From: an uncultured Brevinema sp.
Lineage (GTDB): Bacteria > Spirochaetota > Brevinematia > Brevinematales > Brevinemataceae
Assembly: GCA_947038195.1 (NCBI GenBank)
Contig: CAMQVI010000004.1
Span: 886-64,885 of the forward strand
Direction of reading: 5' to 3'
DNA: 64,000 bases
Positions within the stretch are counted from its first letter, which is position 1; every line of letters starts with the position of its first letter. The position numbers and the translations under genes were made by a program. Of the stretch, positions 3,540-51,658 are shown in pieces. The notes under the pieces were generated by a model. It had not been told where the DNA came from. It did no database searches and was given only the letters and a program-made list of their open reading frames with translations.

Positions 3540-3568
3540 TAAAACTCCTTTGATAATAAAAAAAAAGG

Positions 3569-3592
3569 GGAGAAGATTCTCCCCTTTTTCGT
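3569..3592. terminator. Bidirectional hairpin GGGGAGAAGATTCTCCCC flanked by A-run and T-run
   Basis: aaaaaaaaaggggagaagattctcccctttttcg, lying between the EAL/HDOD gene stop and the dinG start. Confidence 0.6.
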
Positions 3593-3601
3593 TTTTAAGG
3601 A

Positions 3602-4858: not shown

Positions 4859-5027
4859 TAATGGTTAATGATATTAATTATATATTATTTATTATAGATG
4901 AGATTTCTTTTTTTTTCAAGCCTTAATCCAAATATATTGTCTTTTATCTTTATTAAGTTTCAAAAAGAAATGACGATAAAAAGATAAGCCTATTTTTTAA
5001 AATAGTATGCCAGGAGCCAGTGAAATA

Positions 5028-7251: not shown

Positions 7252-7295
7252 AATATTTAGAAAATAATAGTTCATCTCTAAAAAGGTACTAAATA

Positions 7296-18453: not shown

Positions 18454-18527
18454 GGGCCTGTAGCTCAGATGGTTAGAGCAACCGACTCATAATCGGTGGG
18501 TCGAGGGTTCGATCCCCTCCGGGCCCC
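18454..18527 (+). tRNA. tRNA with CAU anticodon, probably tRNA-Ile2 (lysidine-modified); elongator tRNA-Met not excluded
   Basis: Cloverleaf read by hand: acceptor GGGCCTG/CGGGCCC, D-arm TAGCTCAGATGGTTAGAGCA, anticodon arm ACCGA-CTCATAA-TCGGT (CAT at 18488..18490), T-arm GAGGG-TTCGATC-CCCTC. The anticodon stem-loop CGACUCAUAAUCG resembles E. coli ileX. No encoded CCA. Confidence 0.9.
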
Positions 18528-18563: not shown

Positions 18564-19497
18564 ATACCTTTTTATTGAAAATACAAAGGTAAGATCCACT
18601 AAGAATAATACTAGCTCCTAAGACTTGCTGGGAGTCTATTGTTTCCCCCATAAGGAGATAGGCAAATAGAGCAGAAAAAATAGGAATAAGTAATTGTAAA
18701 ATATTAAAAGTAGCAACGCCTTGGGTTTTAATAATAGAAAATCCTAAAAGCATTCCTACTGTTATTCCATACATACCAGCAAAGATTAAAATGCCTATTT
18801 GCATGGTAGAACTATTATTAAGATTGTAAATACTACCTGTGAAAAAGGTAATAGATAAGAGGATAGTACCTGTGAGCAGAGAGTTTATTGTTCCAATTAA
18901 AAGAACAGGGATGGTTTTGGAAAGGTATTTTATAATATTGCTTAGAAATATCTGAGCAATCATACTAACAATCAGATATAGTGCTCCCTCAGAGATGAAG
19001 GTGCCTTGAGAAGCTGACCCTTGAAATACAAAAAGAAGCGAGCCTATAAGGCAAATACTCATACCCATGAGGAATTTTTTATTGAGACTTCTCTCTCTCT
19101 CATCTTTATAGAGGGCACAGGAGAGGAGGGTGCTTAAAGGAATTCCAAAAGTCGTAAAAACGCTCCCTGTAAAAGCAGAAGTTAAAGACAATCCTTTAAT
19201 AAAGCAGACCATATTAATAGCCATAGTACAAGAGGATACTCCTAAAAGTAATAAAACTTTTGGGTTTTTACCTATAGCGCCTAGAGTGGTGGGGAATTGA
19301 GAACGAAAGCGAATTAGAGCAATGATGAGAAGGACAATGCCTCCTGATAAAAATCGTATAGCGTTATTATTAATAGCTGAAAAATGTAAACTGGTATAAC
19401 GGAGTAAAGGTACTGCAAATCCAGATAAAATCAAGAATCGCAATGAGTGTGTGAAATGAGAAAGCATAAGAGGGTCTTTATGATGGGTAGATTTCAT
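18562..19497 (-). CDS. EamA/DMT-family transporter
   Basis: About 10 TM segments. The track start at 19524 is GTG. AGGAG-N6-ATG supports a start at 19497 (MKSTHHKD...). Confidence 0.75.
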   Translation of the reverse strand: MKSTHHKDPLMLSHFTHSLRFLILSGFAVPLLRYTSLHFSAINNNAIRFLSGGIVLLIIALIRFRSQFPTTLGAIGKNPKVLLLLGVSSCTMAINMVCFIKGLSLTSAFTGSVFTTFGIPLSTLLSCALYKDERERSLNKKFLMGMSICLIGSLLFVFQGSASQGTFISEGALYLIVSMIAQIFLSNIIKYLSKTIPVLLIGTINSLLTGTILLSITFFTGSIYNLNNSSTMQIGILIFAGMYGITVGMLLGFSIIKTQGVATFNILQLLIPIFSALFAYLLMGETIDSQQVLGASIILSGSYLCIFNKKV

Positions 19498-19581
19498 AAA
19501 TATCTCCTCTAATTTTTTTGTCACCTATATACAGGGACTATATTAAGTATTTCTCTAAAAAATGGTGGCTTACAAAGATCT

Positions 19582-20361
19582 TCAGTGAGTGTTAACACTT
19601 CCCATGAGATGTGATATTTCTTGAGCAGACGCTAATAGCTCTTTAATATGGAATACATGGAGCTCTTCAGACCATCTTGCTATGGGCATAGAAATGCTAA
19701 GAGCGGCACATATGTGATTTTGATAATCAAAAATAGGGACAGCAACACATCTAATATGAAACTCGTGCTCTTCATTGTCTTCGGCATAGCCTTGTTCTTT
19801 GACTAGTAGAAGGTGTTTTTTGAATTCCTCAGTAGAAGTGATTGTGTGTTCAGTAAACTTAAAGAGAGTGATTTCTTTGATAATACTATCTATAAGATCA
19901 TCATTTTCGTACGCTAAAAGAACTTTTCCCAACCCTGTACAGTGTAAAGGAGCTAATTTTCCTACTTGAGAATAGAGGCGTAGAGAATGGTGGGAATCTA
20001 TTTTATGAATGTAGATACAATCTGTGTGGTCTCTTATCGCTAAATGCACTGTTTCTTTGACTTTGTCCCCTAAAGTCTGCATGATAGGAAAAGCTAATTC
20101 TGTAATATTATAATGTAATAGAATATCAGAACAGATAGATGCTAAGCGTAAAGTCAATCCATATTGCTGAGTTTTAGGGTTTTGATGAGCATAGCCTAAA
20201 TCACATAAGGTAGATAGACATTTATAAGCCATAGTACTACTCATATTGGTCTGCAAACCTATATCTTTCAAAGACATTTCTTTGTGAGTAGAGAGCAGTT
20301 TAATGATGGCAAAAGCTTTAATAATTAATCCTGCTTGGGTGGGTGATTTGGGTGTATCCAT
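19582..20361 (-). CDS. IclR-family transcriptional regulator (KdgR-like)
   Basis: 259 aa with an N-terminal wHTH and a C-terminal IclR effector domain. Divergent from the eda-kdgK operon. Confidence 0.8.
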   Translation of the reverse strand: MDTPKSPTQAGLIIKAFAIIKLLSTHKEMSLKDIGLQTNMSSTMAYKCLSTLCDLGYAHQNPKTQQYGLTLRLASICSDILLHYNITELAFPIMQTLGDKVKETVHLAIRDHTDCIYIHKIDSHHSLRLYSQVGKLAPLHCTGLGKVLLAYENDDLIDSIIKEITLFKFTEHTITSTEEFKKHLLLVKEQGYAEDNEEHEFHIRCVAVPIFDYQNHICAALSISMPIARWSEELHVFHIKELLASAQEISHLMGSVNTH

Positions 20362-20603
20362 TTTTGTCCTACTTTAAAGTAATTGTTTTCTATTCTTATT
20401 TTATAAGAGAAATGTATTTTATGCAATAGGGAAAGCAATAAAAAATAGGCACAAGTGTTTTGAAATATGTAACTGTTTATAATATATGAAATTAAAAAAT
20501 ATAATATTTTTAATAAATTAAGTATTGAAAATTTGTGAATTTGATTTATAATAAATGTAAATAATAAATACAAATAGTAAATCAAATTATTTAAGGAGAT
20601 CAA

Positions 20604-21239
20604 ATGTCTGTATTAGAAAAATATATGCTTGCTAAAATTATACCAGTAGCTGTTGTGGATAATGAAAAAGAATTACGAAATTTAGCTGATTTATGTTCAA
20701 AATATGTACCTGCTGTTGAGCTTACCATGCGTACACCCTATGCAAAAACAGCTTTAGAGATTCTACATAAAGAATATTCTCATCTATCCTGCGCTGCTGC
20801 TACAATACTTAGTGTGGAACAAGCGGAAGAGGCAATAGCCACGGGGACTAAGATAATAATTAGCCCTGGGTTCACTCCTAAATTAGTAGAGCATTGCGCC
20901 GCTAAAGGCTATCAATATGTTCCTGGGGTGGCAAGTGCTGCAGAATTAGAATTTTGTCTTTCTCATGGTTTCAAAATATTAAAATTCTTTCCAGCAGAAG
21001 CTGCAGGAGGAATCAAATGGCTTAAAGCGGTAGGACCAGTATATAAACATATGGGCGTTACGTTCATGCCTCTAGGCGGAGTAAACATGGATAATGTTAC
21101 AGAATATTTAAAACTCAGTAATGTTATTGCCTGCGGTGGCTCGTGGTTATGCCCTAAGGATCTTATGGAAAAGGGAAATTGGGAAGAAATTGAAAAAAGA
21201 TTCAAAGAAATGCAAGATTTGCTAAAGGGGTTATCATAA
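20604..21239 (+). CDS. eda: 2-dehydro-3-deoxy-phosphogluconate (KDPG/KHG) aldolase
   Basis: 211 aa. VELTMRTP, ISPGFTP, KFFPAEAAGG, PLGGV and a C-terminal CGGSWL, all Eda-family motifs. Confidence 0.88.
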   Translation: MSVLEKYMLAKIIPVAVVDNEKELRNLADLCSKYVPAVELTMRTPYAKTALEILHKEYSHLSCAAATILSVEQAEEAIATGTKIIISPGFTPKLVEHCAAKGYQYVPGVASAAELEFCLSHGFKILKFFPAEAAGGIKWLKAVGPVYKHMGVTFMPLGGVNMDNVTEYLKLSNVIACGGSWLCPKDLMEKGNWEEIEKRFKEMQDLLKGLS

Positions 21240-22267
21240 TGAAGTATATTGTAGGATTTGGAGAAGTAATGCTTCGCTTAACAGCACCTGATTATGAGAG
21301 ATTATTGCAATCTCCTCAATTAAAAGCGACAATGGGGGGCGGTGAGGCTAATGTTTGTGTATCTTGTTCTCGCTTTGGATTGCCCTCTCGTTATGTTTCT
21401 GCATTTCCTAAAAATATGTTAGGGGAAAAAGCAGAGGAACTATTATTAGGACAAAAAATAGATACTTCAGCTATTGCATGGACTGGAAAAAGAATGGGAA
21501 TCTATTTTGTAGAAAGAGGCTCAAATCAAAGAGGGTCTACCGTTTTATACGATAGGGAAGATTCTGCTATTAGTAATGCAAAACCTACTGATTTTGATTG
21601 GGATAAAGTTTTTGAAAATGCTGAGTATTTTCACATTTCTGGAATTACTCCTGCACTTAGCCAAAATGCAGCAGATTTAACCTTATATGCGGTAAAAGAA
21701 GCTAAAAAACATGGCGTGAAAGTATCCTGTGATCTTAATTATAGAAAAAAACTATGGGCTTACGGTAAAAAATCATCTGAAGTAATGCCTGCTATTGTGG
21801 AACATGTGGATCTACTTATTGCAAATGAAGAAGATATTCAATTATCTTTAGGAATTGATTTTACAGCAGATGTCACTAAAGGGCATTTGGAAGCAAAGGA
21901 TTATGAACCCCTTATGAAAGAAGTCTGTAAAAGATACCCTCATTTATTGGGAGTAGCCACTACTTTGAGAGAAAGTGTCAGCGCGAATCATAATGATTGG
22001 AGAGCTATATTTTATACAGGTAATAAATTACATGTTTCTAAGAGATACAATATCACTGATATTGTAGATAGAGTGGGAGGCGGAGATTCTTTCGCTGCAG
22101 GTTTACTTAGTGGGCTTAGATTTTATACAAATCCCCAAGAGTCTTTAGAGTTTGCTGTGGCAGCTTCTTGCTTAAAACACACTATAGACGGAGATTGGAA
22201 TTTAGTTAGTAAAAAAGAAGTCTTGGATCTTATGGAAGGAGATGGTTCTGGAAGAGTGCAACGATAA
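21239..22267 (+). CDS. kdgK: 2-dehydro-3-deoxygluconokinase (PfkB family)
   Basis: 342 aa. GGGEANV N-terminal motif and VDRVGGGDSFAAGLL C-terminal PfkB motif. 1-nt overlap with eda. Confidence 0.85.
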   Translation: MKYIVGFGEVMLRLTAPDYERLLQSPQLKATMGGGEANVCVSCSRFGLPSRYVSAFPKNMLGEKAEELLLGQKIDTSAIAWTGKRMGIYFVERGSNQRGSTVLYDREDSAISNAKPTDFDWDKVFENAEYFHISGITPALSQNAADLTLYAVKEAKKHGVKVSCDLNYRKKLWAYGKKSSEVMPAIVEHVDLLIANEEDIQLSLGIDFTADVTKGHLEAKDYEPLMKEVCKRYPHLLGVATTLRESVSANHNDWRAIFYTGNKLHVSKRYNITDIVDRVGGGDSFAAGLLSGLRFYTNPQESLEFAVAASCLKHTIDGDWNLVSKKEVLDLMEGDGSGRVQR

Positions 22268-22335
22268 GGGAAAACTCTAATTTTATATACTTACAAACAG
22301 ATTTGAAATAATATTATTAAAAATAGGAGGTCATT

Positions 22336-23784
22336 ATGAGTCAAGCTCAAATGATTATTGGTTTATTAGTATACGTTGGTGGTCTAATGTTTTTAGGTTG
22401 GTATATTCCAAGAAAACAATCTGGTGCAGAAGATTTTTTATTAGGGGGTCGTGGATTACCTTTTATATTAGTTTTTGGAACCACAATGGCAACAATGGTA
22501 GGCACAGGATCTACGATGGGTGCTGTCGGTAATGCCTATTATAATGGCTGGGCAGGGGTTTTAGTCGGAATAGGTGGATCCTTAGGATTTTTTCTACTAA
22601 CTTATATTTTTGTTGATGCCAGAAATGACAATTTTGTCACAGAAACAGAAGAACTAGCTTCTTATTATCAGAACAATAAACTCTTGAAAATAGTAATTTC
22701 TATTATGTTAACATTAGCTTCAATTGGTTGGTTAGGCGCTCATCTAATGGGGGGAAGTACTTATCTTGCTCATATTACAGGGCTTGACATGAATTTATCT
22801 CGTATCATTATGGCGTTCACTTTTGCTATTTATATAGTAGTGGGTGGCTATTTAGCAGTTGTTTGGACAGATACTATCCAAGCCTTTATTCTATTCTTTG
22901 GATTTATTGCCATGGCTATTGTATCTCTTATAAAAGCTGGTGGTATGGAAGGTATTAGTGCTGCTATGCCTGCAGAAAACTTCTCTTTTTTAGGAATAGA
23001 TAAGATTGGTTTGATTCCAGCAATCTCCGTTATCGTTGCGATTGCTACAAGTCCTTTATCTGTACCATCTTTCCGTCAACGTATATATAGTGCAAAAGAC
23101 ACAGCAACAGCTAAAAAAGCTTTTTTAACAACTTCTATTGCTTTTTTACTTTTTGCTGTAACACCTGCAATAGTTGGTATGTCAGCTTATGCTATCAATC
23201 CAAACATCGCTGATTCTAACTTTGTATTCCCTTACATGGCAACCTCTGTATTTCCTCCTTTTATAGGTTTGGCAATTTTAATTTGTGGTATGTCAGCAAC
23301 TATTTCATCAGGGGATTCTGATGCTATGACAGGTATTACAATACTTGTAACAGATGTCTATCAATTGATGACAGGAAAAGCTCTTCCAGCAGATAAAGTC
23401 GTTAATGTTTCTAAAATGATGGCATTCGTAGTGGTTGGAGCTGCTTTAGCATTTACTTGGTTTGCTAAAGATATTTTAGGCTATATCCAAACGATGATCT
23501 CTACTTTACTTACTGGTGTTGCCGTTGCAGGAATTTTTGGCCGTTATTGGAAAAGATCCACATGGCAAGGGGCTTTAGCTGCTATTATTACAGCTAGTTT
23601 AACTTCTTTCTTTGTTTCAGGAAATAAAGATTTAATAGCTTTCTGGGGCGGTCCTATAATACCAGCGTGGATTGTATCTTCATTAGCACAAGTTATTGTA
23701 TCTTTATTAACACCTATGCCACCTCGTGATCGTGCAGAAATTTTAAAAGAAATTCACACAGAACGTCAAGGAATGGGACTTTAA
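22336..23784 (+). CDS. Sodium:solute symporter (SSS) family transporter
   Basis: 482 aa, about 13 TM segments, strong RBS AGGAGG. SSS-like N-terminal pattern DFLLGGRGLP. Confidence 0.8.
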   Translation: MSQAQMIIGLLVYVGGLMFLGWYIPRKQSGAEDFLLGGRGLPFILVFGTTMATMVGTGSTMGAVGNAYYNGWAGVLVGIGGSLGFFLLTYIFVDARNDNFVTETEELASYYQNNKLLKIVISIMLTLASIGWLGAHLMGGSTYLAHITGLDMNLSRIIMAFTFAIYIVVGGYLAVVWTDTIQAFILFFGFIAMAIVSLIKAGGMEGISAAMPAENFSFLGIDKIGLIPAISVIVAIATSPLSVPSFRQRIYSAKDTATAKKAFLTTSIAFLLFAVTPAIVGMSAYAINPNIADSNFVFPYMATSVFPPFIGLAILICGMSATISSGDSDAMTGITILVTDVYQLMTGKALPADKVVNVSKMMAFVVVGAALAFTWFAKDILGYIQTMISTLLTGVAVAGIFGRYWKRSTWQGALAAIITASLTSFFVSGNKDLIAFWGGPIIPAWIVSSLAQVIVSLLTPMPPRDRAEILKEIHTERQGMGL

Positions 23785-23796
23785 TCACCGATTTAT

Positions 23797-23846
23797 AACT
23801 CTACCTTATAACATAAGATTACATGTCTTTTTTATAGGGTAGAGTT
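23797..23846 (+). terminator. 15-bp stem (one G-U) with 20-nt loop between symporter and dehydratase; attenuator or terminator
   Basis: aactctaccttataa ... ttatagggtagagtt followed by ttttatttat. Confidence 0.35.
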
Positions 23847-23873
23847 TTATTTATATCACGTAAGGGGCGTAAA

Positions 23874-25625
23874 ATGAAAAGAAATATCAAAGATATGCCT
23901 AGTCAGCTTATTCGTAATATAGCACCAGAGATGGATCCCTTAAAAATAGGAATGGGTTGGTCTGTTGAAGATTTAGCGAAAATGCATGTCTTTATACAAA
24001 GTACTTTTGGACATAGTCATCCAGGAAGTGCTCATTTGATGCCTTTAGTACAATCAGCCTTCGATGAAGTAGAAAAATTTGGGGCAAAAGGAAATATGTT
24101 TTTTGCCACAGATATGTGTGATGGACAAGCTCAAGGGCATGATGGTATGAATTATTCTCTACCTTCAAGAGAATTTATTGCAAATATGATAGAATGTCAA
24201 TGTGGAGCAACAGCTTTTGATACTTCCATTTATATATGTTCTTGTGATAAAGGTGTTCCAGCACATTTACAGGCTTTAGCGAGATTAGATATTCCAGCAA
24301 TTATTTTGACTGGAGGAGTGATGCAAGCTGGACCAAATATGCTTACCTTAGAACAAGTTGGTATGTACTCTGCTCAGTATCAACGTGGTGAAATTACCAA
24401 AGCTGAGTTTGCTTATGCAAAGCATAATGCTTGTCCAAGTTGTGGAGCATGTTCCTTTATGGGCACAGCTGCTACTATGCAAGTTATGGCAGAAGCTTTA
24501 GGCATGAGTTTACCTGGCACGGCAATGATGGCTGTTGATATGGATCAATTAAAAGAAGTTGCTAAAGATGTTGCTCAAGCAGCAATCAATCTAGCATTTG
24601 AAAATATAAAACCTTCTATGATTATGACAGAAAAAGCCTTCGAAAATGCTATTATGGTGCATTCAGCAATCGCTGGATCGACTAATAGTTTATTACATTT
24701 GCCAACCATAGCAAGAGAATTGGGAATGACTCTTAATATGGAAAAATTTGATGAAATTCATCGTAAAATCAACTTTATTGCAAACATAAGACCAAGTGGT
24801 TTTTATCCAGGATCATTCTTCCACAAAGCGGGCGGTGTCCCAGCTATCATGAAAGAAATACAAAAACATCTGCATTTAGATGTCCTAACAGTAACAGGTA
24901 AAACATTGGGTGAGAATTTAGAAAACTTAGAAAAATCTGATTACTTTGAAAAATGTAATGAAGAATTAGCCAAACTAAATGTTAAAAAAGATGATGTCAT
25001 CAAAGCTTATGACACCCCTATACAGCAAGGTGGAGCAGTAGCTATTCTCAAAGGCAACTTAGCACCAGAAGGTGCTGTTGTCAAACACTCTGCCCTTCCT
25101 ATAGAAATGAAAAAAGCTGTGTTGAGAGCTGTTCCTTTTGATAAAGAAGAAGATGCTTTACAAGCAGTACTTAATAAAACAATCCAACCTGGTGATGCTG
25201 TAATTATTAGATATGAAGGACCTAAAGGTTCTTGTATGCCTGAGATGTTTTATACAACAGAGGCCATAGCTTCTGATAAAGACTTACGAGCTACGATTGC
25301 TTTGTTGACAGATGGTAGATTTTCAGGGGCAACAAGAGGGCCTGCAATTGGTCATATTTCTCCTGAAGCAGCAGTAGGTGGTCCTATCGCTTTGGTGGAA
25401 CTTGGAGATTTATTAGAAATAAATATCGAAAATAGGTCCCTTAATATTGTAGGGGTTCAAGGCAAAGAACTATCATTAGCAGAGATAGAACTTATTCTAC
25501 AAGAAAGAAAATCCAAATGGATCCCTAAACAAAAAGCTATGAAAAGAGGTGCTTTATCATTGTATTCAGCATTTGCTGTTTCTGCCATGAAAGGTGGATA
25601 TATAGATGTTAATAATAAAGATTAG
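23874..25625 (+). CDS. IlvD/Edd-family sugar-acid dehydratase
   Basis: 583 aa. FeS ligand contexts DMCDGQAQG, CSCDKGVPA, CPSCGACSFMGTA. C-terminal TDGRFSGATRG. Confidence 0.85.
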   Translation: MKRNIKDMPSQLIRNIAPEMDPLKIGMGWSVEDLAKMHVFIQSTFGHSHPGSAHLMPLVQSAFDEVEKFGAKGNMFFATDMCDGQAQGHDGMNYSLPSREFIANMIECQCGATAFDTSIYICSCDKGVPAHLQALARLDIPAIILTGGVMQAGPNMLTLEQVGMYSAQYQRGEITKAEFAYAKHNACPSCGACSFMGTAATMQVMAEALGMSLPGTAMMAVDMDQLKEVAKDVAQAAINLAFENIKPSMIMTEKAFENAIMVHSAIAGSTNSLLHLPTIARELGMTLNMEKFDEIHRKINFIANIRPSGFYPGSFFHKAGGVPAIMKEIQKHLHLDVLTVTGKTLGENLENLEKSDYFEKCNEELAKLNVKKDDVIKAYDTPIQQGGAVAILKGNLAPEGAVVKHSALPIEMKKAVLRAVPFDKEEDALQAVLNKTIQPGDAVIIRYEGPKGSCMPEMFYTTEAIASDKDLRATIALLTDGRFSGATRGPAIGHISPEAAVGGPIALVELGDLLEINIENRSLNIVGVQGKELSLAEIELILQERKSKWIPKQKAMKRGALSLYSAFAVSAMKGGYIDVNNKD

Positions 25626-25651
25626 CTAAAATATTATAAGAGAGGTATACT

Positions 25652-26869
25652 ATGTATACTTATTTAATTAAAAATGCTCATGTGATCGACCCAAAGTCAA
25701 AAACTTCTGAGATTAAAGATCTCGCTATAATCAAAAATACTATTGCTAAAATAGCTTCTAATATCACAGGAGATGCTGAGTATATTATTGACGCAACAGG
25801 TTTATATTTGACTCCAGGCTTGATAGATGCTCATGCTCATTGTTACCATACGACAGGTATTCCTCAAGCGTGGGCTGGGGATAATGGTATTCAAGCTGAT
25901 GCTTTTTCTTTTAGAAATGGCTGTACTACCATGATTGATACAGGATCTAGTGGCTGTCTAAATTTTTCTCATTTTAAGGCAACAGTAATAGATAGAGTAA
26001 AAACCAAAGTATTCGTCCTATTGAATATCGCTGATTGGGGTATGAACACCCTACTAACAGAGCAGTTTCCAGAATTGTTTCAAATTGATAAGTGTATAGA
26101 AGTGGCTAAACAATATCCTGAAATTGTAGGAATCAAAATAGCTCATTATTGGCATCCTGGTTGGGAACATGTAGATTTAGGCTTAAAAGTGGGAAAAGCT
26201 GCTAAATTGCCTTTGATGGTGGATTTTGGTCGATTCAAAAAAGAAAGACCAGTGCATGAATTATTAAAACGTTTACGTAAAGGGGATATTTTAACTCATT
26301 GTTATAGAGCTCCTGTACCTGTTATTAATAGTAAAGGACAAGTTTTTTCTTATCTTCGTGAAGCTAGAGAAAGAGGAGTTTTGTTTGATTTAGGTCATGG
26401 ACAAGGTTCTTTTTTGTTTAGAAATGCGCTTCCAGCTATTCAACAAGATTTTAAACCAGATTTTGTATCAACTGATTTACACGGAACAAGTATGAATGAA
26501 GCCTGTCAGGATATGTTGACAGTAATGTCAAAATGTCTAGCAATGGGCATGAGTTTTGAAGAAATAATAGCATCTGCTACCATAAAACCAGCTAAAGCTT
26601 TTTCTTTACCATCACCTATTGGTGTATTAGAAGAAGGGGGAAATGCAGATATTGCTCTCTTTTCTATCGCTGAAGGCAAATACGCCTATAAAGATATTTG
26701 TGGTGGAGTTTTACCTTCTACAAAGCGTATTTATTGTGAAATGACCTTTGCTAATGGAGAATTACTATGGGATTATAATGCTCGTTGTGGTGTAGCCTAC
26801 CAAGAATTGCCAGATTTATGTGGAATAGATCCTATTTATGAAGAATATACCCCACCAACGGAGAACTAA
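25652..26869 (+). CDS. Metal-dependent amidohydrolase/deacetylase (dihydroorotase-like superfamily)
   Basis: 405 aa with PGLIDAHAHCYH (HxH metal site), plus later His/Asp motifs (THCY, DLGHG, STDLHG). Confidence 0.8.
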   Translation: MYTYLIKNAHVIDPKSKTSEIKDLAIIKNTIAKIASNITGDAEYIIDATGLYLTPGLIDAHAHCYHTTGIPQAWAGDNGIQADAFSFRNGCTTMIDTGSSGCLNFSHFKATVIDRVKTKVFVLLNIADWGMNTLLTEQFPELFQIDKCIEVAKQYPEIVGIKIAHYWHPGWEHVDLGLKVGKAAKLPLMVDFGRFKKERPVHELLKRLRKGDILTHCYRAPVPVINSKGQVFSYLREARERGVLFDLGHGQGSFLFRNALPAIQQDFKPDFVSTDLHGTSMNEACQDMLTVMSKCLAMGMSFEEIIASATIKPAKAFSLPSPIGVLEEGGNADIALFSIAEGKYAYKDICGGVLPSTKRIYCEMTFANGELLWDYNARCGVAYQELPDLCGIDPIYEEYTPPTEN

Positions 26870-26871
26870 AA

Positions 26872-27999
26872 ATGTCCATATATGAAAAACTAGGGATAAG
26901 CCCTTTAATAAATGCTGCTGGCACATATACTGCTATCGGTGGATCTCGCATGAGTGAAAAAACATTGTCTGATATGAATGAGGCCGCCCAATCTTTTGTT
27001 GATATTAGAAAACTACAAGCATCAGTAAACAAACGCCTAGCTGTTTTAACAAATAACGAAGCTGCCGCTGTATGTAATGGAGCTGCTTCAGGATTGTATA
27101 TCTGTTGTGCGACTTGTATTACCCTACTCTATAAAAAATCTTATAATTATCTTAGTAAAAAACAAATAGAAGAGTCTGAATTCATTGTTTTCCGTGCTCA
27201 TAGAAATCCGTATGATTGGGGACTTCGTTTGATGGGTGTTACCGTTAAAGAACTCGGTTTTCCTAATATTATTCAAGCCGCTACCGCAGAAGAATTGGAA
27301 GCGAGTATTTCAGAAAAAACAGCAGGGATTTTCTTTGCCTACAGTGCTCCACATGGTTGGATAGCAGATGGAGAATTAGATCTCAAATCAACAATAGCAA
27401 TAGCCAAAAAATACGATATTCCTGTCGTTGTAGACGCAGCTGCTCAATTACCCTATAAAGAAAATCTATGGCATCTCACTAAAGATCTAGGAGCTACTGT
27501 AGCATTATTTAGTGGTGGTAAGGAACTAAGAGGCCCTCAATCCTCAGGTTTGATTGTTGGAGAGAAAAAATTCCTAGATACTTTCGTACAGCATAATTTC
27601 CCTAATTATGGACCTGGACGTATGCTCAAAACAGGTAGAGAAGAAATTATAGGACTATTATCTGCCGTAGAACAATATATTGCTGAAGATACAGAAAAAC
27701 GTATACAATGGTGCGAAGAACAAGTGCAAAAATTAATCGCCTTTGCTCAATCAAGTACTGTGTATGATATTGTTAAATCTTTCCCTAATGAAGCTGGACA
27801 ACCTATTCCTAGAGCAGAAATAAAATTAACCAATAATCAAAATCTTTCATCAGTAGTAGAGTTATTAGCTGCTCACAAACCTTCTATCTATACTGCCTTA
27901 GAAAGAGGACTATTATTTGTCAATCCAACTTGCTTATATGAAGGAGAAACAGAAATTATTATCCAAGCATTAAATCAAATTCAAGACAAACTAAAATAG
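26872..27999 (+). CDS. SelA-like PLP-dependent enzyme (DgaE-like amino-sugar-acid ammonia-lyase candidate)
   Basis: 375 aa. FSGGKELRGPQSSGLIVG parallels the SelA PLP-lysine motif FSGDKLLGGPQAGIIVG. No Sec machinery nearby. Confidence 0.75.
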   Translation: MSIYEKLGISPLINAAGTYTAIGGSRMSEKTLSDMNEAAQSFVDIRKLQASVNKRLAVLTNNEAAAVCNGAASGLYICCATCITLLYKKSYNYLSKKQIEESEFIVFRAHRNPYDWGLRLMGVTVKELGFPNIIQAATAEELEASISEKTAGIFFAYSAPHGWIADGELDLKSTIAIAKKYDIPVVVDAAAQLPYKENLWHLTKDLGATVALFSGGKELRGPQSSGLIVGEKKFLDTFVQHNFPNYGPGRMLKTGREEIIGLLSAVEQYIAEDTEKRIQWCEEQVQKLIAFAQSSTVYDIVKSFPNEAGQPIPRAEIKLTNNQNLSSVVELLAAHKPSIYTALERGLLFVNPTCLYEGETEIIIQALNQIQDKLK

Positions 28000-28011
28000 A
28001 GAGGTATTCTA

Positions 28012-28401
28012 ATGTCATGTAAAAAAGTCCCCAAAAAAGCAATTCAGCATCTTACGGCTGGACCATACTCACCAGTATTGGAGGTGGAGTTTGATAAATT
28101 AATATTAATATCTGGACAAGCTCCTATTAATATGGAAGGTATGGTAGTAGGAGACACGATAGAAGAGCAAACAAGATTTACGATGGAAAATTGTATTAAA
28201 CAATTAGCTTTTGCTGATTGTACCCTAGATGACGTTTTTAAAGTGAACGTATATCTTACGGATTTAGATTTGTGGCCAAGATTTAATGAGGTTTATGTAG
28301 AATATTTCAACAAACCACTACCTGTACGTACAGCGGTACAAACAGGTTTACTGTATACGTTTTTAGTAGAAATAGAAATGTGGGCAGCAAAAAAGAAATA
28401 A
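28012..28401 (+). CDS. RidA/YjgF-family enamine/imine deaminase
   Basis: 129 aa. GPYSPV, ISGQ, VNVYL.D and a C-terminal PVRTAVQ..L....VEIE, YjgF-family motifs. Confidence 0.85.
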   Translation: MSCKKVPKKAIQHLTAGPYSPVLEVEFDKLILISGQAPINMEGMVVGDTIEEQTRFTMENCIKQLAFADCTLDDVFKVNVYLTDLDLWPRFNEVYVEYFNKPLPVRTAVQTGLLYTFLVEIEMWAAKKK

Positions 28402-28418
28402 GTATTTTGATGATAAAA

Positions 28419-28450
28419 AGATAGGGATAATAAATATCTCTATCTTTTTT
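28419..28450 (+). terminator. Intrinsic terminator closing the sugar-acid operon
   Basis: agatagggat-N7-atctctatct (one mismatch) followed by tttttt. Confidence 0.6.
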
Positions 28451-28477
28451 ACAAAAATAAGTACTGAGAGGAATAAA

Positions 28478-28640
28478 ATAGATCTTAAAAATACAGAAAA
28501 TATTGCAAGTCAGATAATCAGAAAGAAAGCTCAAGAGACGGAGCCCTAAAAATAGGAATAGAGTGGACTCAAGAATATTTGGGTGAAATACATATTTTTA
28601 TAGTGCCCATAGCTATCGGGACGGTAGCGATTATGTAAGC
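28478..28640 (+). pseudogene. Decayed 5' fragment of a second IlvD/Edd-family dehydratase gene
   Basis: agtcagataatcagaaag...gagccctaaaaataggaatagagtgg aligns with the start of the intact gene at 23901.. (agtcagcttattcgtaat...gatcccttaaaaataggaatgggttgg). Translation is SQIIRKKAQETEP, then a 1-nt deletion, then LKIGIEWTQEYLGEIHIFI, versus SQLIRNIAPEMDPLKIGMGWSVEDLAKMHVFI. Confidence 0.5.
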
Positions 28641-28689
28641 ATTAGTAATGACAGTAATAGTCGCATTCAATCAGTGAAGGGGGAATATT

Positions 28690-29685
28690 ATGAAAGCATT
28701 AGTGTATGCTGTGAGACCAGATGAAATTGACTTTTTTGAACAGTTTTCTAAGGAACTAAATTTAGATATAGACCTTTGTTCTAGTAATTTAACAGAAGAT
28801 ACGGTAGAACAAGCTAAAGGATATCAAACAGTAATATTTTTAGCAGAATGCAAAGTAACGGGGAAAGTATTAGAGAGTCTCAAAAGCTTTGGAATAAACC
28901 ATATAGTGTCCCGATCAGTTGGAGTTGACAATGTAGATTGGGAGAAAGCTAATGAATTGGATATTAAAATAGCAAATGTTCCAGCCTATTCTCCTAATTC
29001 AGTCAGTGAGTTTGTATTAACTTCGACTCTAGTGTTATTACGTAATTACCACCATTATTTGGATAGAGTACAAAATCAAGATTTTACAATTACTGGTTTA
29101 GTCGCTAAAGAAATTAGAAATCAAGTGGTGGCTATTATTGGGGTTGGAAAAATAGGATTTGAAACGGTGAAAAATTTCACAGGTTTTGGTCCAAAAGAAA
29201 TATTGCTATATGACCCTTTTGAGAAAGAAGAAGTGAAAAAATATGGGCGGTATACGTCTTTAGAGGAAATCTATAAATCTAGTGATATTATTGTGTATCA
29301 TATTCCTTTATTAAAAGATACTGTGAATATAATATCTAAGAAAAACATTGACAAGATGAAAAAAGGTGTGATTTTAATTAATGTTAGCCGAGGGGGCATC
29401 ATGAATGCATCTGATCTTTTAGATGGAATTAATGAGGGGAAAATAGCAGGGGCAGCTGTAGATGTGTACGACAATGAACTATCTTATTTTCGACATGACT
29501 GGAGAGAAAAAAATATTCCTGATACAACTCTTGTAAAATTACTAGCCCACCCTCAAGTAATAGTTACACCTCACGCTGCTTTCTATACGGATGAAGCTGT
29601 TTCTAATATGGTTTCTATTTCTTTGGGGAATGTAAAAGAGTTTTTTGATACAGGTAATTCTAAAAATATAGTTAATAAAAAATAA
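28690..29685 (+). CDS. ldhA: D-lactate / D-2-hydroxyacid dehydrogenase (NAD-dependent)
   Basis: 331 aa. Rossmann motif IIGVGKIGF, and the catalytic region NVSRGG...D and TPHAAFYT. Confidence 0.85.
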   Translation: MKALVYAVRPDEIDFFEQFSKELNLDIDLCSSNLTEDTVEQAKGYQTVIFLAECKVTGKVLESLKSFGINHIVSRSVGVDNVDWEKANELDIKIANVPAYSPNSVSEFVLTSTLVLLRNYHHYLDRVQNQDFTITGLVAKEIRNQVVAIIGVGKIGFETVKNFTGFGPKEILLYDPFEKEEVKKYGRYTSLEEIYKSSDIIVYHIPLLKDTVNIISKKNIDKMKKGVILINVSRGGIMNASDLLDGINEGKIAGAAVDVYDNELSYFRHDWREKNIPDTTLVKLLAHPQVIVTPHAAFYTDEAVSNMVSISLGNVKEFFDTGNSKNIVNKK

Positions 29686-29749
29686 TCTACTTATACTTTT
29701 GGTGGAATCAAATAAAACTTCCAAAAGGAAAATGACTAAAAATAGAAAT

Positions 29750-29790
29750 AAAAAAAGCTAGAGATATTTATTATCTCTAGCTTTTTTTTA
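29750..29790. terminator. Bidirectional terminator agctagagata-tttat-tatctctagct with flanking A-run and T-run
   Basis: Perfect 11-bp stem between the convergent ldhA and SDR genes. Confidence 0.8.
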
Positions 29791-29791
29791 C

Positions 29792-30613
29792 TTATTTAAT
29801 ATTATTGATTTTTAATCCTGTAACAAAGTCAATAATACCATCACCTAGCCAATGTTTCCCCCATATAGCAAACTTCCCGTCGAAATTTGGGACATAGCGA
29901 AATTTGGGTCGAGAGGTATTTAATATTTTGAGTACGGTATTGGAAATGGAGCTAGCTTTGGCAGACCCTAAGGGCATATTTTCCATAGTAGTCATGAGAT
30001 TATTGATTTGTGAAGCGTAAGGGGATTCTGAAGATTCTTTACATCGCTCAAGAGCCACTTTCCCAAATTCTGACTCTACTCTTCCAGGTTCTATCAAAAC
30101 TACTTTAATTCCAAAAGGTTTTAACTCTACACGTAAAGCATCACTTAACCCTTCTACGGCATATTTGGAAGAAGAATACCACGCTAAAAATGGAAAAGCC
30201 ACTTTCCCTACCACGGATGAGATATTAATAATAATTCCACTTTTTTGAGATCTCATGGTGGGTAAGACAGCCTTGCTCATTTGGGCTAGCCCAAAGACAT
30301 TGACATCAAATAATTGTTTAGCTTGCTCCATGGTACTTTCTTCCAAAGAACCATAAAATCCATAACCAGCATTGTTAATAAGAATATCTATAGAGGATTC
30401 TTTTTTTAAGACTTCTGATACTGCTCTATCGATATCCTCTTGAGAGGTGACATCCATTTTAATAGGATAGCCTCCTTTTTCAGAGATGTCATTCATCATT
30501 TCTATACGACGAGCAAATCCATATACGGTGTACCCTTTTTGAAGTAAGGAAAGGGCTATTTCTTTCCCTAGACCAGAGGATGCCCCCGAGATAAGTGCGA
30601 CTTTATTTTTCAT
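29792..30613 (-). CDS. Short-chain dehydrogenase/reductase (SDR) family oxidoreductase
   Basis: 273 aa. ISGASSGLG cofactor motif, NNAG, and YSSSK catalytic Tyr-Lys. Confidence 0.85.
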   Translation of the reverse strand: MKNKVALISGASSGLGKEIALSLLQKGYTVYGFARRIEMMNDISEKGGYPIKMDVTSQEDIDRAVSEVLKKESSIDILINNAGYGFYGSLEESTMEQAKQLFDVNVFGLAQMSKAVLPTMRSQKSGIIINISSVVGKVAFPFLAWYSSSKYAVEGLSDALRVELKPFGIKVVLIEPGRVESEFGKVALERCKESSESPYASQINNLMTTMENMPLGSAKASSISNTVLKILNTSRPKFRYVPNFDGKFAIWGKHWLGDGIIDFVTGLKINNIK

Positions 30614-30688
30614 ATATTCTCCTTAATATTATTTAATAGCTTACTTATAAGTATACTACAAGACAGCGTATCGTTCAATGGATATCAT

Positions 30689-30722
30689 AAAAAAAGCCAA
30701 GATTCTTAAGAACCTTGGCTTT
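30689..30722 (-). terminator. Intrinsic terminator after the thiolase gene
   Basis: The minus strand reads agccaaggttcttaagaatcttggct followed by ttttttt. Confidence 0.7.
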
Positions 30723-30738
30723 TATCTAGCTTAGTAGT

Positions 30739-31944
30739 TTATATTTTTTTGAGGATAATCGCAGTACCCATACCACCACCAATACAAAGAGATGCTAAAC
30801 CGTAATTGGCATTACGTTTGATCATTTCATAAATGAGGGTTACAGTAATACGAGCTCCAGATGCTCCCACAGGATGTCCAATGGCAATAGCGCCTCCATT
30901 GACATTACAACGACTTATAATATCTTCTTTGGACATGCCAGAAGATTCAGAAAGTAAATGTACAACACCTAAAGCTTGAGCAGCAAAAGCTTCGTTTAAT
31001 TCTAAAAGCTCCATATCTTGGAGTTTAAGATTAGCTTGAGCAAGAGCTTTAGTGATAGCAGGTGCAGGTCCTAATCCCATCGTTTCAGGATCACAACCAG
31101 CTTGTCCAATGGCTACTATTTCCATAATAGGGGTGAGATTGTATTTTTTAAGCCCTTCTTCGCTTACTACCAAGAAAGCAGCAGCACCATCATTAATACC
31201 TGATGCGTTACCAGCTGTTACAGATCCTTCTTTATTAAAGGCAGGACGTAATCCAGCTAATACTTCAAGGGTGGTTTTACGGTTAGGGTATTCATCAGTA
31301 TCCACTACTTCTACCCCTTTACGGGTTTTCACTTCTACAGAAACGATTTCATCTTTAAAACGTCCACTGTCTACAGCAGCAATAGCTTTTTGTTGAGACC
31401 CAAAAGCAAATTTATCTTGTTCTTCACGAGAAATATTAAATTTTGCAGCAATATTTTCTGCTGTGATTCCCATATGATAGCCACCAAAACCATCAGTTAA
31501 AGCATCTAATACAAGGTGGTCTTTAGCGCTTATATCACCCATTTTATGTCCAGCACGAACATTAGCAGGGATTAGGAAAGGAGCATTAGACATGCTTTCT
31601 GTACCACCAGCAATAATCATATCAGCAAGTCCAGCTTTGATAGTAGTGAAAGCACTCATAAGAGATTTCATACCACTACCACAGATCATATTAAGTCCAT
31701 AAGCTGGGACTGATTTGGGGATGCCAGCATTAACAGATGCTTGACGAGCAATACCTTGCTTTTGTCCTGCCATGAGGACGTTCCCAAGCACTACTTCTTC
31801 AATATTTTCTAAAGGGATTTTTTTATCTTTTAAGATAGCTTTAATAGCAGTAGTTCCTAGATCTCCAGGACTAACACTAGCTAGAGCTCCATTGAAAGAG
31901 CCTACAGGGGTTCTTTTTGCGTCAACAATATATACTTTTGACAT
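30739..31944 (-). CDS. thlA: Acetyl-CoA C-acetyltransferase (thiolase II)
   Basis: 401 aa. Active-site contexts NMICGSGMKS, NEAFAAQ, GHPVGASG and CIGGGMG. Confidence 0.93.
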   Translation of the reverse strand: MSKVYIVDAKRTPVGSFNGALASVSPGDLGTTAIKAILKDKKIPLENIEEVVLGNVLMAGQKQGIARQASVNAGIPKSVPAYGLNMICGSGMKSLMSAFTTIKAGLADMIIAGGTESMSNAPFLIPANVRAGHKMGDISAKDHLVLDALTDGFGGYHMGITAENIAAKFNISREEQDKFAFGSQQKAIAAVDSGRFKDEIVSVEVKTRKGVEVVDTDEYPNRKTTLEVLAGLRPAFNKEGSVTAGNASGINDGAAAFLVVSEEGLKKYNLTPIMEIVAIGQAGCDPETMGLGPAPAITKALAQANLKLQDMELLELNEAFAAQALGVVHLLSESSGMSKEDIISRCNVNGGAIAIGHPVGASGARITVTLIYEMIKRNANYGLASLCIGGGMGTAIILKKI

Positions 31945-31972
31945 GATTATCTCCTAATAACATATTTATACT

Positions 31973-32032
31973 AATATAATGCAATTTTATATCCATATAT
32001 TTTTTTATATGGATATAAAATTGCATTATATT
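31973..32032. repeat. Perfect 27-bp inverted repeat separated by TTTTTT, immediately upstream of the thiolase start
   Basis: aatataatgcaattttatatccatata (31973..31999), tttttt, tatatggatataaaattgcattatatt (32006..32032). Confidence 0.9.
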
Positions 32033-32044
32033 GTTATTTTAAAT

Positions 32045-32096
32045 AAATATAAAAAAGAATGACAAAGATATAATAAATAATTATACCTTTGTCATT
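32045..32096 (-). terminator. Hairpin aatgacaaag-N19-ctttgtcatt plus T-run (minus strand) after the MaoC-like gene
   Basis: Arms at 32058..32067 and 32087..32096. The minus-strand continuation is cttttttatattt. Confidence 0.5.
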
Positions 32097-32103
32097 AGCT
32101 TAA

Positions 32104-32511
32104 TTAATCTTTTTTAAGAAGAGTAGCTTTTCCAGTGACAACTTCTTTTCCGTCTTGATTGACAACAATAGTTTTCAAGACAACACGGTTTTTTTCAGAA
32201 ATGAGTTCTTCAATCTCACAGATAGCAGTGATGGTATCTCCAATAAATACAGGAGCCATAAATTTAAGCTCTTGTGACATGTAGATAGCACCTTCTCCTG
32301 GGAGTTTGGTGCCTAATACAGCAGAAATCAATCCAGCACTAATCATTCCATGAGCGATTCTTTTCCCAAAAATGGAATTTTTACCAGCTTCTTCATCCAT
32401 ATGTATAGGATTGAAGTCTAAAGAAACCTCAGCGAATTTTTGTATATCTTCGTTGGTGATTGTTTTTTTGACTTCTTCTTTCATTCCTACTTTAAATTCT
32501 GAATATTTCAT
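32104..32511 (-). CDS. MaoC-like (R)-specific enoyl-CoA hydratase (PhaJ-type hot-dog fold)
   Basis: 135 aa. FAEVSLDFNPIHMDEEAGK.SIFG.RIAHGM, the MaoC dehydratase signature. Confidence 0.85.
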   Translation of the reverse strand: MKYSEFKVGMKEEVKKTITNEDIQKFAEVSLDFNPIHMDEEAGKNSIFGKRIAHGMISAGLISAVLGTKLPGEGAIYMSQELKFMAPVFIGDTITAICEIEELISEKNRVVLKTIVVNQDGKEVVTGKATLLKKD

Positions 32512-32529
32512 AGTCTATTCCTTATGGTT

Positions 32530-33555: not shown

Positions 33556-33565
33556 ATCTATGTTC

Positions 33566-34348: not shown

Positions 34349-34377
34349 AAAAACTCCTATTTTACAATAAGGGGGAC

Positions 34378-41867: not shown

Positions 41868-43693
<1,826 letters not shown>

Positions 43694-43721
43694 TTTAATA
43701 AAAAATTAAAGGGTTTGTATA

Positions 43722-51335: not shown

Positions 51336-51370
51336 GATGGTCCTTTTATACTCCAAAGGGATAAGAAATC

Positions 51371-51648: not shown

Positions 51649-51658
51649 AAGATATCCT

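Follow-up and report, generated by a model that had tools for sequence, protein, structure and literature searches.

A putative KdgR-type operon of an uncultured Brevinema predicted to converge an N-acylated amino-aldonate and an aldonate on 2-keto-3-deoxygluconate

The locus and its boundaries

We examined a stretch of 64,000 nucleotides from an uncultured Brevinema sp. (GenBank assembly GCA_947038195.1, contig CAMQVI010000004.1, positions 886 to 64,885 of the forward strand; hereafter the window), and focused on an eight-gene locus, in which a divergent gene for an IclR-family regulator faces genes for an aldolase (Eda), a kinase (KdgK), a sodium:solute symporter (SSS), an IlvD/Edd-family dehydratase, an amidohydrolase, an enzyme that depends on pyridoxal-5'-phosphate (PLP) and is related to DgaE, and a RidA protein (Table 1). 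We read this locus, with a confidence only slightly above even, as a catabolic operon under KdgR-type (IclR) control, in which two kinds of sugar acid converge on 2-keto-3-deoxygluconate (KDG). Families were assigned by comparing Pfam and NCBIfam profile scores with curated cutoffs, and the annotation of the window covered the 30 open reading frames (ORFs) of at least 150 aa, the other 18 ORFs being left unscanned. A preliminary description of this DNA had named the eight genes with their families, the FSGGKELRGPQ motif carrying the PLP lysine, the HxH motif of the amidohydrolase, the 1-nt overlap of eda and kdgK, and a terminator. The ORF list together with Pfam and NCBIfam confirmed the genes and families, and every other feature was found where it had been placed.

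Besides the overlap of eda and kdgK, the same-strand genes of the operon are separated by spacers of 2-89 nt. The presumed transcription unit starts from a candidate promoter, which is the best sigma-70-like site in the region 19000-30000 and matches 11 of the 12 consensus positions. Its -10 element, ATTTATAAT, is identical in the window and in the Brevinema loci L002 and L004, and the TTGAAA -35 element is common to the window and L004 (L-numbers denote comparison loci: L002 and L004, Brevinema; L005, Brachyspira; L003, a Treponemataceae metagenome-assembled genome (MAG); L061, Endozoicomonas; L007, Ignavibacteria; L086, Klebsiella). The candidate promoter is overlapped by a perfect 11-nt inverted repeat (20538-20548 / 20578-20588) and by a 45-nt imperfect direct repeat (71%; 20476-20520 and 20545-20589), which are possible regulator sites in a very AT-rich region. 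Because the spacer is too AT-rich, no operator was called; the candidates for a KdgR/IclR operator in it were only AT-rich palindromes and the imperfect direct repeat, none of which was convincing.

The best NCBIfam model for the regulator was KdgR (212.6 bits, under the cutoff of 275), and its response to an effector is presumed. In L002, L004 and L061, too, an IclR gene points away from the operon. At the other end, the terminator hairpin has a folding energy of -17.5 kcal/mol (z = -4.87 versus shuffled sequences). No riboswitch or leader was detected in an Rfam scan of the locus. The gene order is not due to chance, as the identical order recurs in spirochaetes, namely in Brevinema and Brachyspira MAGs (L001, L002, L005), and the core of amidohydrolase, PLP enzyme and RidA recurs across phyla.

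Table 1. Genes and other features assigned to the operon and its flanks (positions in the window)
Feature	Position	Strand	Remarks
IclR-family regulator, closest to KdgR	19582..20361	-	divergent from operon; Pfam IclR_C 177.6 bits and HTH_IclR
candidate sigma-70 promoter TTGAAA-16-TATAAT	20525..20552	+	inside the 242-bp divergent intergenic region 20362-20603
2-keto-3-deoxy-6-phosphogluconate (KDPG)/2-keto-4-hydroxyglutarate (KHG) aldolase Eda	20604..21239	+	PF01081, 180 bits
KDG kinase KdgK, PfkB family	21239..22267	+	PfkB, 113 bits
SSS, proposed (amino-)aldonate importer	22336..23784	+	PF00474, 131.6 bits
IlvD/Edd-family dehydratase	23874..25625	+	ILVD_EDD_N and ILVD_EDD_C
cog3964 / EF_0837-related amidohydrolase, proposed N-deacetylase	25652..26869	+	PRK09237 and TIGR03583 matches below cutoff
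fold-type-I PLP enzyme, DgaE/Cap15/SelA-related clade	26872..27999	+	proposed 2-amino-2-deoxy-aldonate ammonia-lyase, unphosphorylated substrate
RidA-family enamine/imine deaminase	28012..28401	+	PF01042, 88 bits
intrinsic terminator of operon	28415..28449	+	15-bp stem and U-run
D-lactate-dehydrogenase-like 2-hydroxyacid dehydrogenase, possible accessory	28690..29685	+	2-Hacid_dh

The PLP-dependent enzyme

The PLP-dependent protein (375 aa) fell short of three NCBIfam cutoffs, scoring 183 against 385.3 for TIGR01437, 139 against 600 for the DgaE equivalog NF047797, and 34.8 against 267.9 for the SelA equivalog TIGR00474. It is 27% identical to DgaE and 97% identical to a protein of an uncultured Brevinema MAG. 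In a neighbour-joining tree rooted with SelA as the outgroup, the window protein and 34 relatives formed a clade that was monophyletic in 198 of 200 bootstraps and sister to DgaE plus Cap15, DgaE itself being monophyletic in 200 of 200. The AlphaFold model of the protein (predicted local distance difference test score, pLDDT, 89.5) gave template modelling (TM) scores of 0.82 to Cap15 (8T7J), 0.79 to DgaE (7LC0) and ~0.63 to SelA. The protein, which had been introduced as SelA-like, therefore does not cluster with SelA by score, tree or structure, and SelA identity is ruled out by these and by its length (463 aa in Escherichia coli SelA, the full-length form including an N-terminal tRNA-binding domain). 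Orthology to DgaE is likewise ruled out by cutoffs, residues, gene context and tree, so that the earlier label 'DgaE-like' does not hold in the sense of an orthologue. The family comprises 374 clusters at 50% identity (E <= 1e-30), and relatives were found in at least 207 species-representative genomes from more than 10 phyla. Judged from its sequence relationships, the protein is a member of a large sister clade, neither a SelA nor a DgaE orthologue.

The active site of DgaE provides the reference for this clade. Lys213 of DgaE is the PLP lysine, His162 and His163 have been called strictly conserved, with His163 being the stereospecific proton donor to C3, and Arg301, Arg332 and Arg346 form the phosphate cluster (PMC9529869). 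The authors of that work considered that protonation of C3 may prevent the escape of a reactive intermediate (PMC9529869). In the H163A mutant of DgaE, a 293-nm transient builds up. We compared the corresponding columns in an alignment of 35 clade members and counted residues more widely in 135 representatives of the family. Lys217 in the FSGGKELRGPQ motif aligns with DgaE Lys213, a lysine that all 135 representatives have, and the window clade also retains His110 and Arg314, equivalent to DgaE His112 and Arg301, respectively. The columns of His162 and His163 are occupied by G-G-W or gaps in the window clade; the lone His161 of the window protein sits in an insertion and is Asn in an 82%-identical Brevinema orthologue. 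Arg297 of DgaE is changed to Gln in the clade, and both Arg332 and Arg346 are replaced in all 35 aligned members (NPT/NPM versus DPR, with Thr or Met at position 346). Neither Arg332 nor Arg346 was found in 122 of the 135 representatives, and both were present in one, whereas the DgaE orthologues and Cap15 retain all the arginines. Since two phosphate-binding arginines are lacking, the pattern fits a substrate without phosphate. In a clade lacking His163, moreover, the enamine would leave the active site, and RidA would complete its conversion to KDG.

The amidohydrolase and RidA

The amidohydrolase scored 343.5 against a cutoff of 371 for PRK09237 and 207 against 432 for TIGR03583, and its HxH motif is DAHAH (residues 59-63). 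Its nearest structures are all members of cog3964 (8JE0, 2OGJ, 2ICS, which is EF_0837, and 8WZY), and PpOngB (9KB1) was not among the structure matches at E <= 1e-5; we found no literature on 8JE0 and 8WZY. In the orthologues linked to the PLP gene, HxH, beta-4 Lys162, beta-6 His216 and beta-8 Asp275 are invariant, and the beta-5 His of 2OGJ is replaced by Asp191 in 32 of 33, within the motif MVDFGxFKKERP. The Asp in place of the beta-5 His sets these proteins apart as a distinct amidohydrolase subfamily. A paper citing the original work states that 2OGJ was found by experiment to deacetylate and to have no dihydroorotase activity (PMC4987910). By analogy, we propose that the amidohydrolase is an N-deacetylase removing an acyl group.

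The RidA protein scored above the cutoff of PF01042 and under that of TIGR00004 (77.5 versus 106). Inspection of the translation revealed the catalytic-Arg motif PVRTAV as well as GPYSPV and VEIEMW, which presumably carry the residues equivalent to E. coli Arg105, Tyr17 and Glu120, respectively.

The KDG enzymes, the symporter and the dehydratase

Eda exceeded the cutoff of TIGR01182 (200.1 versus 156), and we take its motifs AVELTMRT and LKFFPAE to carry the counterparts of E. coli Glu45 and the Schiff-base Lys133. KdgK matched the kinase half of a KHG/KDPG-aldolase/kinase fusion model with 452 bits and a model of bifunctional kinases for KDG and 2-keto-3-deoxygalactonate (KDGal) with 229 bits; its nearest structure is 2AFB, the KDG kinase of Thermotoga (291 bits). 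The symporter is 49% identical to an SSS of Endozoicomonas (L061), encoded just downstream of the gene for an OngB-like deacetylase, and 38-48% identical to SSS proteins encoded next to PLP-RidA genes in termite-gut Treponema, Vibrio and Maledivibacter.

The IlvD-like protein carries, by inspection, the motifs CDK, CxxCxxC-like and TDGRFSG, and it scored below the dihydroxyacid dehydratase (DHAD) equivalog TIGR00110 (500 versus the cutoff of 618). Members of its clade (63-67% identity) occur in GntR-IlvD-GntP cassettes, both in a common lineage of the gut and in Ilyobacter, while Alkaliphilus has the arrangement IclR-Eda-PfkB-GntR-GntR-TctBCA-IlvD; no ilv genes were found in the examined loci of this clade. 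As the clade is found in GntR-GntP and IclR-Eda-KdgK contexts, the protein is probably an aldonate (gluconate-type) dehydratase that would make KDG. A housekeeping enzyme of branched-chain amino acid synthesis was judged unlikely from the clade contexts, although the sequence is nearest to DHADs. Among the PLP loci, the dehydratase gene occurs only in those of Brevinema, Brachyspira and one Treponemataceae MAG. The Brachyspira operon additionally encodes a galactonate dehydratase (647 bits versus a cutoff of 311), and the spirochaete operons thus look like hubs gathering several aldonates at the KDG/KDGal node.

The nearest structures of the D-lactate dehydrogenase (D-LDH)-like protein encoded beyond the terminator are D-LDHs (231 bits). 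Owing to that position, membership of its gene in the operon is uncertain. In Brevinema L002 and Brachyspira L005 the operon itself includes a homologue, so that the gene may be functionally part of the system. A perfect 17-bp bidirectional terminator (29750-29788) separates the D-LDH-like gene from a butyrate-type gene set on the minus strand (29792-35523), which comprises a short-chain dehydrogenase/reductase (SDR), thiolase, electron transfer flavoprotein alpha and beta, and acyl-CoA dehydrogenase.

Gene neighbourhoods across phyla

We compared 80 loci carrying the PLP gene, to which the neighbour counts below refer unless stated otherwise, from Spirochaetota, Synergistota, Bacillota, Planctomycetota, Chloroflexota, Pseudomonadota, Elusimicrobiota, Bacteroidota, Ignavibacteriota and Lentisphaerota. 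An amidohydrolase gene of the window type directly adjoins the PLP gene on the same strand in 31 loci, and a RidA gene follows it directly downstream on the same strand in 29. RidA accompanies the PLP gene in 36 loci altogether, and IlvD and the dehydrogenase do so in 4-5 each. A subset of 37 loci was fully flanked, with at least 6 kb on either side of the PLP gene. Within this subset, a Rid protein was encoded within 8 kb in 29 loci, and a carboxylate-type transporter was found in 29 (tripartite ATP-independent periplasmic (TRAP) transporters in 17, SSS in 8 and peptide/opine-type ATP-binding cassette (ABC) systems in 6). Amidohydrolases were present in 20 (window type in 16, D-aminoacylase type in 7), 2-keto-3-deoxy-acid aldolases in 16 (Eda in 11, RraA-like in 8) and a KdgK homologue in 5. 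The neighbourhood comparison called for in the preliminary description thus showed the PLP gene to be tightly linked with RidA and deacylase genes, and to have KDG/KDGal kinases and aldolases as recurrent neighbours.

Typical gene orders include the following. The Oscillospiraceae loci L020 and L059 read TRAP-Amido-PLP-RidA-(RraA)-Eda-KdgK, where Amido is the amidohydrolase, and L022 reads Amido-PLP-RidA-Eda-KdgK. Eight termite-gut Treponema and Endomicrobium MAGs combine a D-aminoacylase gene with PLP-RidA-SSS. These D-aminoacylases were considered as OngB orthologues and rejected as generic family members (226 bits to 3GIP/1M7J versus 186 to PpOngB). The sole clearly OngB-like enzyme, by comparison with them, is that of Endozoicomonas L061 (489 bits to PpOngB), in the order IclR | PLP-RidA-OngB-like deacetylase-SSS-DgoK (KDGal kinase)-aldolase-PfkB kinase-Eda. 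Both this order and its OngB-like deacetylase indicate that a DgaE-related enzyme holds the position of the deaminase (OngC) there. In one near relative, Ignavibacteria L007 (1990-13407), SSS-PLP is flanked by a fusion of glycoside hydrolase family 9 (GH9) with carbohydrate esterase family 4 (CE4, polysaccharide deacetylase), a GFO/IDH/MocA oxidoreductase and a 646-aa Amidohydro_2 protein. These neighbours suggest an oxidative route from amino sugar to amino-aldonate. Apart from this single GH9-CE4 fusion, no recurrent glycosidases were found among the neighbours of the PLP loci.

The operons of two Brevinema loci also contain orphan genes for EIIC proteins of the cellobiose/chitobiose-family phosphotransferase system (PTS; TIGR00410, 346-381 bits), at 7425-8717 in L002 and at 1271-2572 and 4161-5459 in L004. 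No EIIA or EIIB gene lies beside them, and the window operon has no EIIC gene. A beta-linked disaccharide, or the aldonic acid derived from it, may be what the orphan EIIC proteins import.

Comparison with known pathways

Oxidised amino sugars arise by the attack of lytic polysaccharide monooxygenases (LPMOs) on chitin and by microbial oxidation of glucosamine. To our knowledge, only two systems are known to break them down, namely dga in enterobacteria, which is PTS-based, and ong in Gammaproteobacteria.

The ong cluster serves the catabolism of N-acetyl-D-glucosaminate (GlcNAc1A) in Pseudoalteromonas prydzensis and other Gammaproteobacteria (PMC9537276; PMC12017989), and has been reported almost only from this class (PMC9537276). 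GlcNAc1A from LPMO-oxidised chitin is imported by the SSS transporter OngIT, deacetylated by the D-aminoacylase-like OngB, and deaminated to KDG by the fold-type III PLP enzyme OngC, which deaminates D-Ser and D-Thr as well; the KDG is then phosphorylated by KdgK, for which GlcNAc1A itself is barely a substrate (PMC9537276). The RidA protein OngD is genetically essential in vivo, its role having been left as unknown, and the aldolase gene kdgA belongs to the cluster in Vibrio, Klebsiella and Serratia (PMC9537276). The window operon resembles the ong cluster at the family level in its SSS importer, RidA, KDG kinase and KDPG aldolase, and further, as predicted for the window, in the metal-dependent type of N-deacetylase, the repressor-controlled organisation and the PLP-dependent deamination of a free amino-aldonate. 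On the other hand, the deacetylases and the PLP enzymes are each non-homologous, the deacetylase being of the cog3964 / EF_0837 type in the window and of the D-aminoacylase type in OngB, and the PLP enzyme being a DgaE-related fold-type I protein in the window and a fold-type III protein in OngC. Unlike the ong cluster, moreover, the window operon includes an IlvD-type dehydratase and belongs to a host-associated spirochaete, and no gene for a glycoside hydrolase family 20 (GH20) enzyme (OngA), TonB receptor or LPMO was found in the 30 scanned ORFs of the window.

The dgaABCDEF genes encode the D-glucosaminate PTS pathway of Salmonella and other enterobacteria, in which DgaE is EC 4.3.1.29 (PMC9529869). 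The window PLP enzyme shares with DgaE the fold, a distant common ancestry and the position of the PLP lysine, and presumably also an alpha,beta-elimination on a D-configured 2-amino-aldonate to a 2-keto-3-deoxy acid, which an aldolase would cleave. The differences lie in residues and in gene context. The enzyme lacks the His162/His163 pair, Arg297, Arg332 and Arg346, and the operon lacks the mannose-type PTS (DgaABCD) and a sigma-54 regulator, and has an Eda-type aldolase (PF01081) instead of DgaF (PF07071). The dga locus of Klebsiella (L086), examined as a control, reads sigma-54 activator-EIIABCD(Man)-DgaE-DgaF and contains no RidA, amidohydrolase or kinase gene, all of which are present in the window operon.

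Two further comparisons concern parts of the operon. The neighbourhood of EF_0837 and AHA_3915, as described in TIGRFAMs, contains a TIGR03583 amidohydrolase, a TIGR01437 SelA-related enzyme, a KDGP aldolase and PTS/PRD genes. The window operon is similar in combining a cog3964-type amidohydrolase, a DgaE-family PLP enzyme and a 2-keto-3-deoxy-acid aldolase. It differs in that its proteins fall well under both TIGRFAM cutoffs, a symporter and a kinase replace the PTS, RidA is added, and the amidohydrolase has Asp for the beta-5 His. Semi-phosphorylative Entner-Doudoroff or gluconate dehydratase modules, in turn, combine an aldonate dehydratase of the IlvD or enolase family with KdgK and Eda. 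They share with the window an IlvD-family dehydratase, KDG kinase and KDPG aldolase under an IclR/KdgR-type regulator, and in Clostridia and Fusobacteria members of this IlvD clade are found together with Eda/PfkB and with GntP or TctABC transporters. Unlike in such modules, the module of the window is fused to an amino-aldonate branch and an SSS symporter, and the substrate of its IlvD is a prediction.

Proposed pathway

In the pathway that we propose for the window, the activities, the substrate and the order of the steps are inferred from these comparisons. In the first branch, an N-acylated 2-amino-2-deoxy-hexonate would enter unphosphorylated via the SSS symporter. GlcNAc1A is the most likely substrate, held with less confidence than the pathway as such, and its galacto isomer is possible. 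The cog3964-type amidohydrolase would strip the acyl group, the DgaE-related PLP enzyme would eliminate the 3-OH and the amino group (alpha,beta-elimination), and RidA would help to hydrolyse the released enamine/imine to KDG and ammonia. In the second branch, the IlvD-family enzyme would dehydrate an aldonate such as gluconate to KDG. KDG from both branches would be phosphorylated by KdgK, and Eda would cleave KDPG to pyruvate and glyceraldehyde-3-phosphate; the neighbouring D-LDH-like enzyme may reduce the pyruvate.

This proposal is supported by the same logic having been established experimentally for the ong pathway (PMC9537276), and by the linkage to RidA and deacylases together with the recurrent KDG/KDGal kinases and aldolases beside the PLP gene. 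Support also comes from the kinship of the amidohydrolase with cog3964, whose member 2OGJ is, as the citing paper states, a deacetylase by experiment (PMC4987910), and from the gluconate-type cassettes of the IlvD clade. The route outlined in the preliminary description, from unphosphorylated uptake through possible deacylation and deamination to KDG, KdgK and Eda, with IlvD supplying KDG from a parallel aldonate, has thus gained independent comparative support as a pathway, its substrate being a prediction. The accompanying view that such wiring was undescribed has to be given up, since the ong pathway has exactly this logic, including the SSS transporter and the essential RidA (PMC9537276). 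The type of pathway is therefore known, and what may be new is that non-orthologous enzymes from unrelated families have taken the place of the deacetylase as well as of the deaminase. In the literature that we could search, no description of a DgaE-related variant of this pathway was found, and the pair of PLP enzyme and amidohydrolase may be widespread and misannotated.

It is attractive to speculate further that the PLP clade consists of fold-type-I lyases acting on unphosphorylated 2-amino-2-deoxy-aldonates, which came to depend on RidA after the loss of His163, and that, with the Asp-variant deacetylase, they make up a second route for oxidised amino sugars, one that evolved independently. 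We advance this generalisation tentatively and give it rather less than an even chance.

Several observations weigh against the proposed pathway. The fold family spans diverse chemistries, and the best structural match of the PLP enzyme, Cap15, works as an O2-dependent PLP monooxygenase-decarboxylase; membership in the family alone thus does not fix the chemistry of the window enzyme. In sequence, the IlvD-like protein lies nearer to true DHADs than to the sugar-acid dehydratases that are known, and the scan of the window, which covered its 30 ORFs of at least 150 aa and not the other 18, turned up no gene for a chitinase, GH20 enzyme or LPMO. An aldolase or kinase is encoded in no more than roughly a third to a half of the PLP loci, and YheO regulators, M20/M24 peptidases, or alanine racemase together with alanine dehydrogenase are encoded in many. 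In Lachnospiraceae-type loci, for instance, the PLP gene is accompanied by M20/M24 peptidases, an SDR and GFO/IDH/MocA oxidoreductases, and in Synergistota loci its companions are peptide-type ABC systems and YheO regulators. The wider PLP family therefore probably includes enzymes for non-sugar substrates. Finally, L003 encodes OngC-type and DgaE-related enzymes side by side, which argues against a simple equivalence of the two; the row at 2715-7176 consists of amidohydrolase, YjgF-like protein, OngC-type fold-III enzyme, DgaE-related enzyme and RidA, and the locus also contains alanine racemase and alanine dehydrogenase.

Alternative interpretations

The locus could instead represent two unrelated modules that are juxtaposed, namely a gluconate/KDG operon (Eda-KdgK-SSS-IlvD; semi-phosphorylative Entner-Doudoroff) and a trio of amidohydrolase, PLP enzyme and RidA acting on a non-sugar substrate. 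The latter would be a peptide-like compound or an N-acyl beta-hydroxy (D-)amino acid (N-acetyl-D-serine or N-acetyl-D-threonine, for example) and would yield pyruvate or 2-oxobutyrate. PLP loci without an aldolase or kinase are many, and they carry regulators of the YheO type, peptidases (M20/M24), D-aminoacylases, binding proteins of peptide-type ABC systems, or alanine racemase and alanine dehydrogenase, which speaks for this interpretation, as does the activity of OngC itself on D-Ser and D-Thr. Nevertheless, the trio is embedded in a KDG operon under a single IclR/KdgR-type regulator within its own subclade (L002, L005), the same regulator controls only transporters and the trio in L004, and KDG/KDGal kinases and aldolases lie beside the trio in unrelated phyla (L020, L021, L022, L039, L059, L061, L064). 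We regard two separate modules as unlikely, and yet as an alternative to be taken seriously.

A linear route, in which the PLP enzyme transaminates or oxidatively deaminates the amino-aldonate to a 2-keto-aldonate, the D-2-hydroxyacid dehydrogenase reduces this to the aldonate, and IlvD, KdgK and Eda follow, would place every gene, including those for IlvD and the D-LDH-like protein, in one chain. Both of these genes are indeed inside the operon in L002 and L005, and the fold family includes the non-lyase enzyme Cap15. However, IlvD and the dehydrogenase are each scarce in the 80 loci by comparison with RidA, the marker of an elimination, the dehydrogenase scored 264 bits to D-LDHs versus 85 bits to the 2-ketoaldonate reductase GhrB, and the IlvD clade occurs alone with GntP permeases. 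Such a chain seems improbable to us.

Even less can be said for a kinase-first route, in which the PfkB kinase would phosphorylate glucosaminate at C6 and the PLP enzyme would act on the 6-phosphate. DgaE, the closest characterised relative, does use a 6-phosphate and the operon does encode a kinase, but throughout the clade the phosphate cluster lacks Arg332 and Arg346, a kinase is absent from most PLP loci, that of the window most resembles bona fide KDG kinases, and the reported ong KdgK barely phosphorylates GlcNAc1A (PMC9537276). We consider this order of steps very improbable.

We give almost no credence to a genuine selenocysteine synthase or to a chance cluster of genes that are not co-expressed. 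A weak Pfam SelA match (24.4 bits) and database records calling some homologues selenium transferase speak for the former, and the equivalog score, the shorter length, the tree and a TM score of 0.63 versus about 0.8 for DgaE/Cap15 speak against it. Against the latter are the short spacers, one promoter-like site, one terminator and an order kept across genera.

Other features of the window

Upstream of the locus, a single tRNA-Met (CAT) gene lies at 18454-18527 (+), between the genes for a PAS-like membrane protein and an EamA transporter. Further upstream, a run of plus-strand ORFs (5007-8165) contains a 342-aa ORF without a Pfam match (5474-6502) and ends in a gene for a XerC/D-type integrase (7296-8165). 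On the plus strand at 42308-44960, a gene for a beta-eliminating lyase of the tryptophanase / tyrosine phenol-lyase type is followed by one for a Trp/Tyr permease, and this pair likely forms indole or phenol. A cobalamin riboswitch was detected at 51478-51657 (-; 107.5 bits), upstream of ORFs of 611 aa and 509 aa without a Pfam match; the ORFs of this region are at 49521-51356, 48912-49469 and 47350-48879, all on the minus strand. The 611-aa and 509-aa ORFs may be B12-regulated genes, perhaps for the capture or uptake of B12.

Implications

If the proposed second route is real, its substrates would be oxidised amino sugars, for example glucosaminate or GlcNAc1A released by LPMOs, and among its anaerobic and host-associated users would be Brevinema, Brachyspira, termite-gut Treponema, Synergistota and Clostridia. 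Such a route would also supply a mechanistic reason for the essential OngD of the known pathway. Were the locus of the window to work as we propose, a third enzyme set with the same purpose would be present in many anaerobic and gut lineages, and estimates of which bacteria consume oxidised chitin products would widen. The loss of the His163 proton donor together with the gain of a RidA partner offers a testable idea on when PLP-dependent eliminases need RidA.

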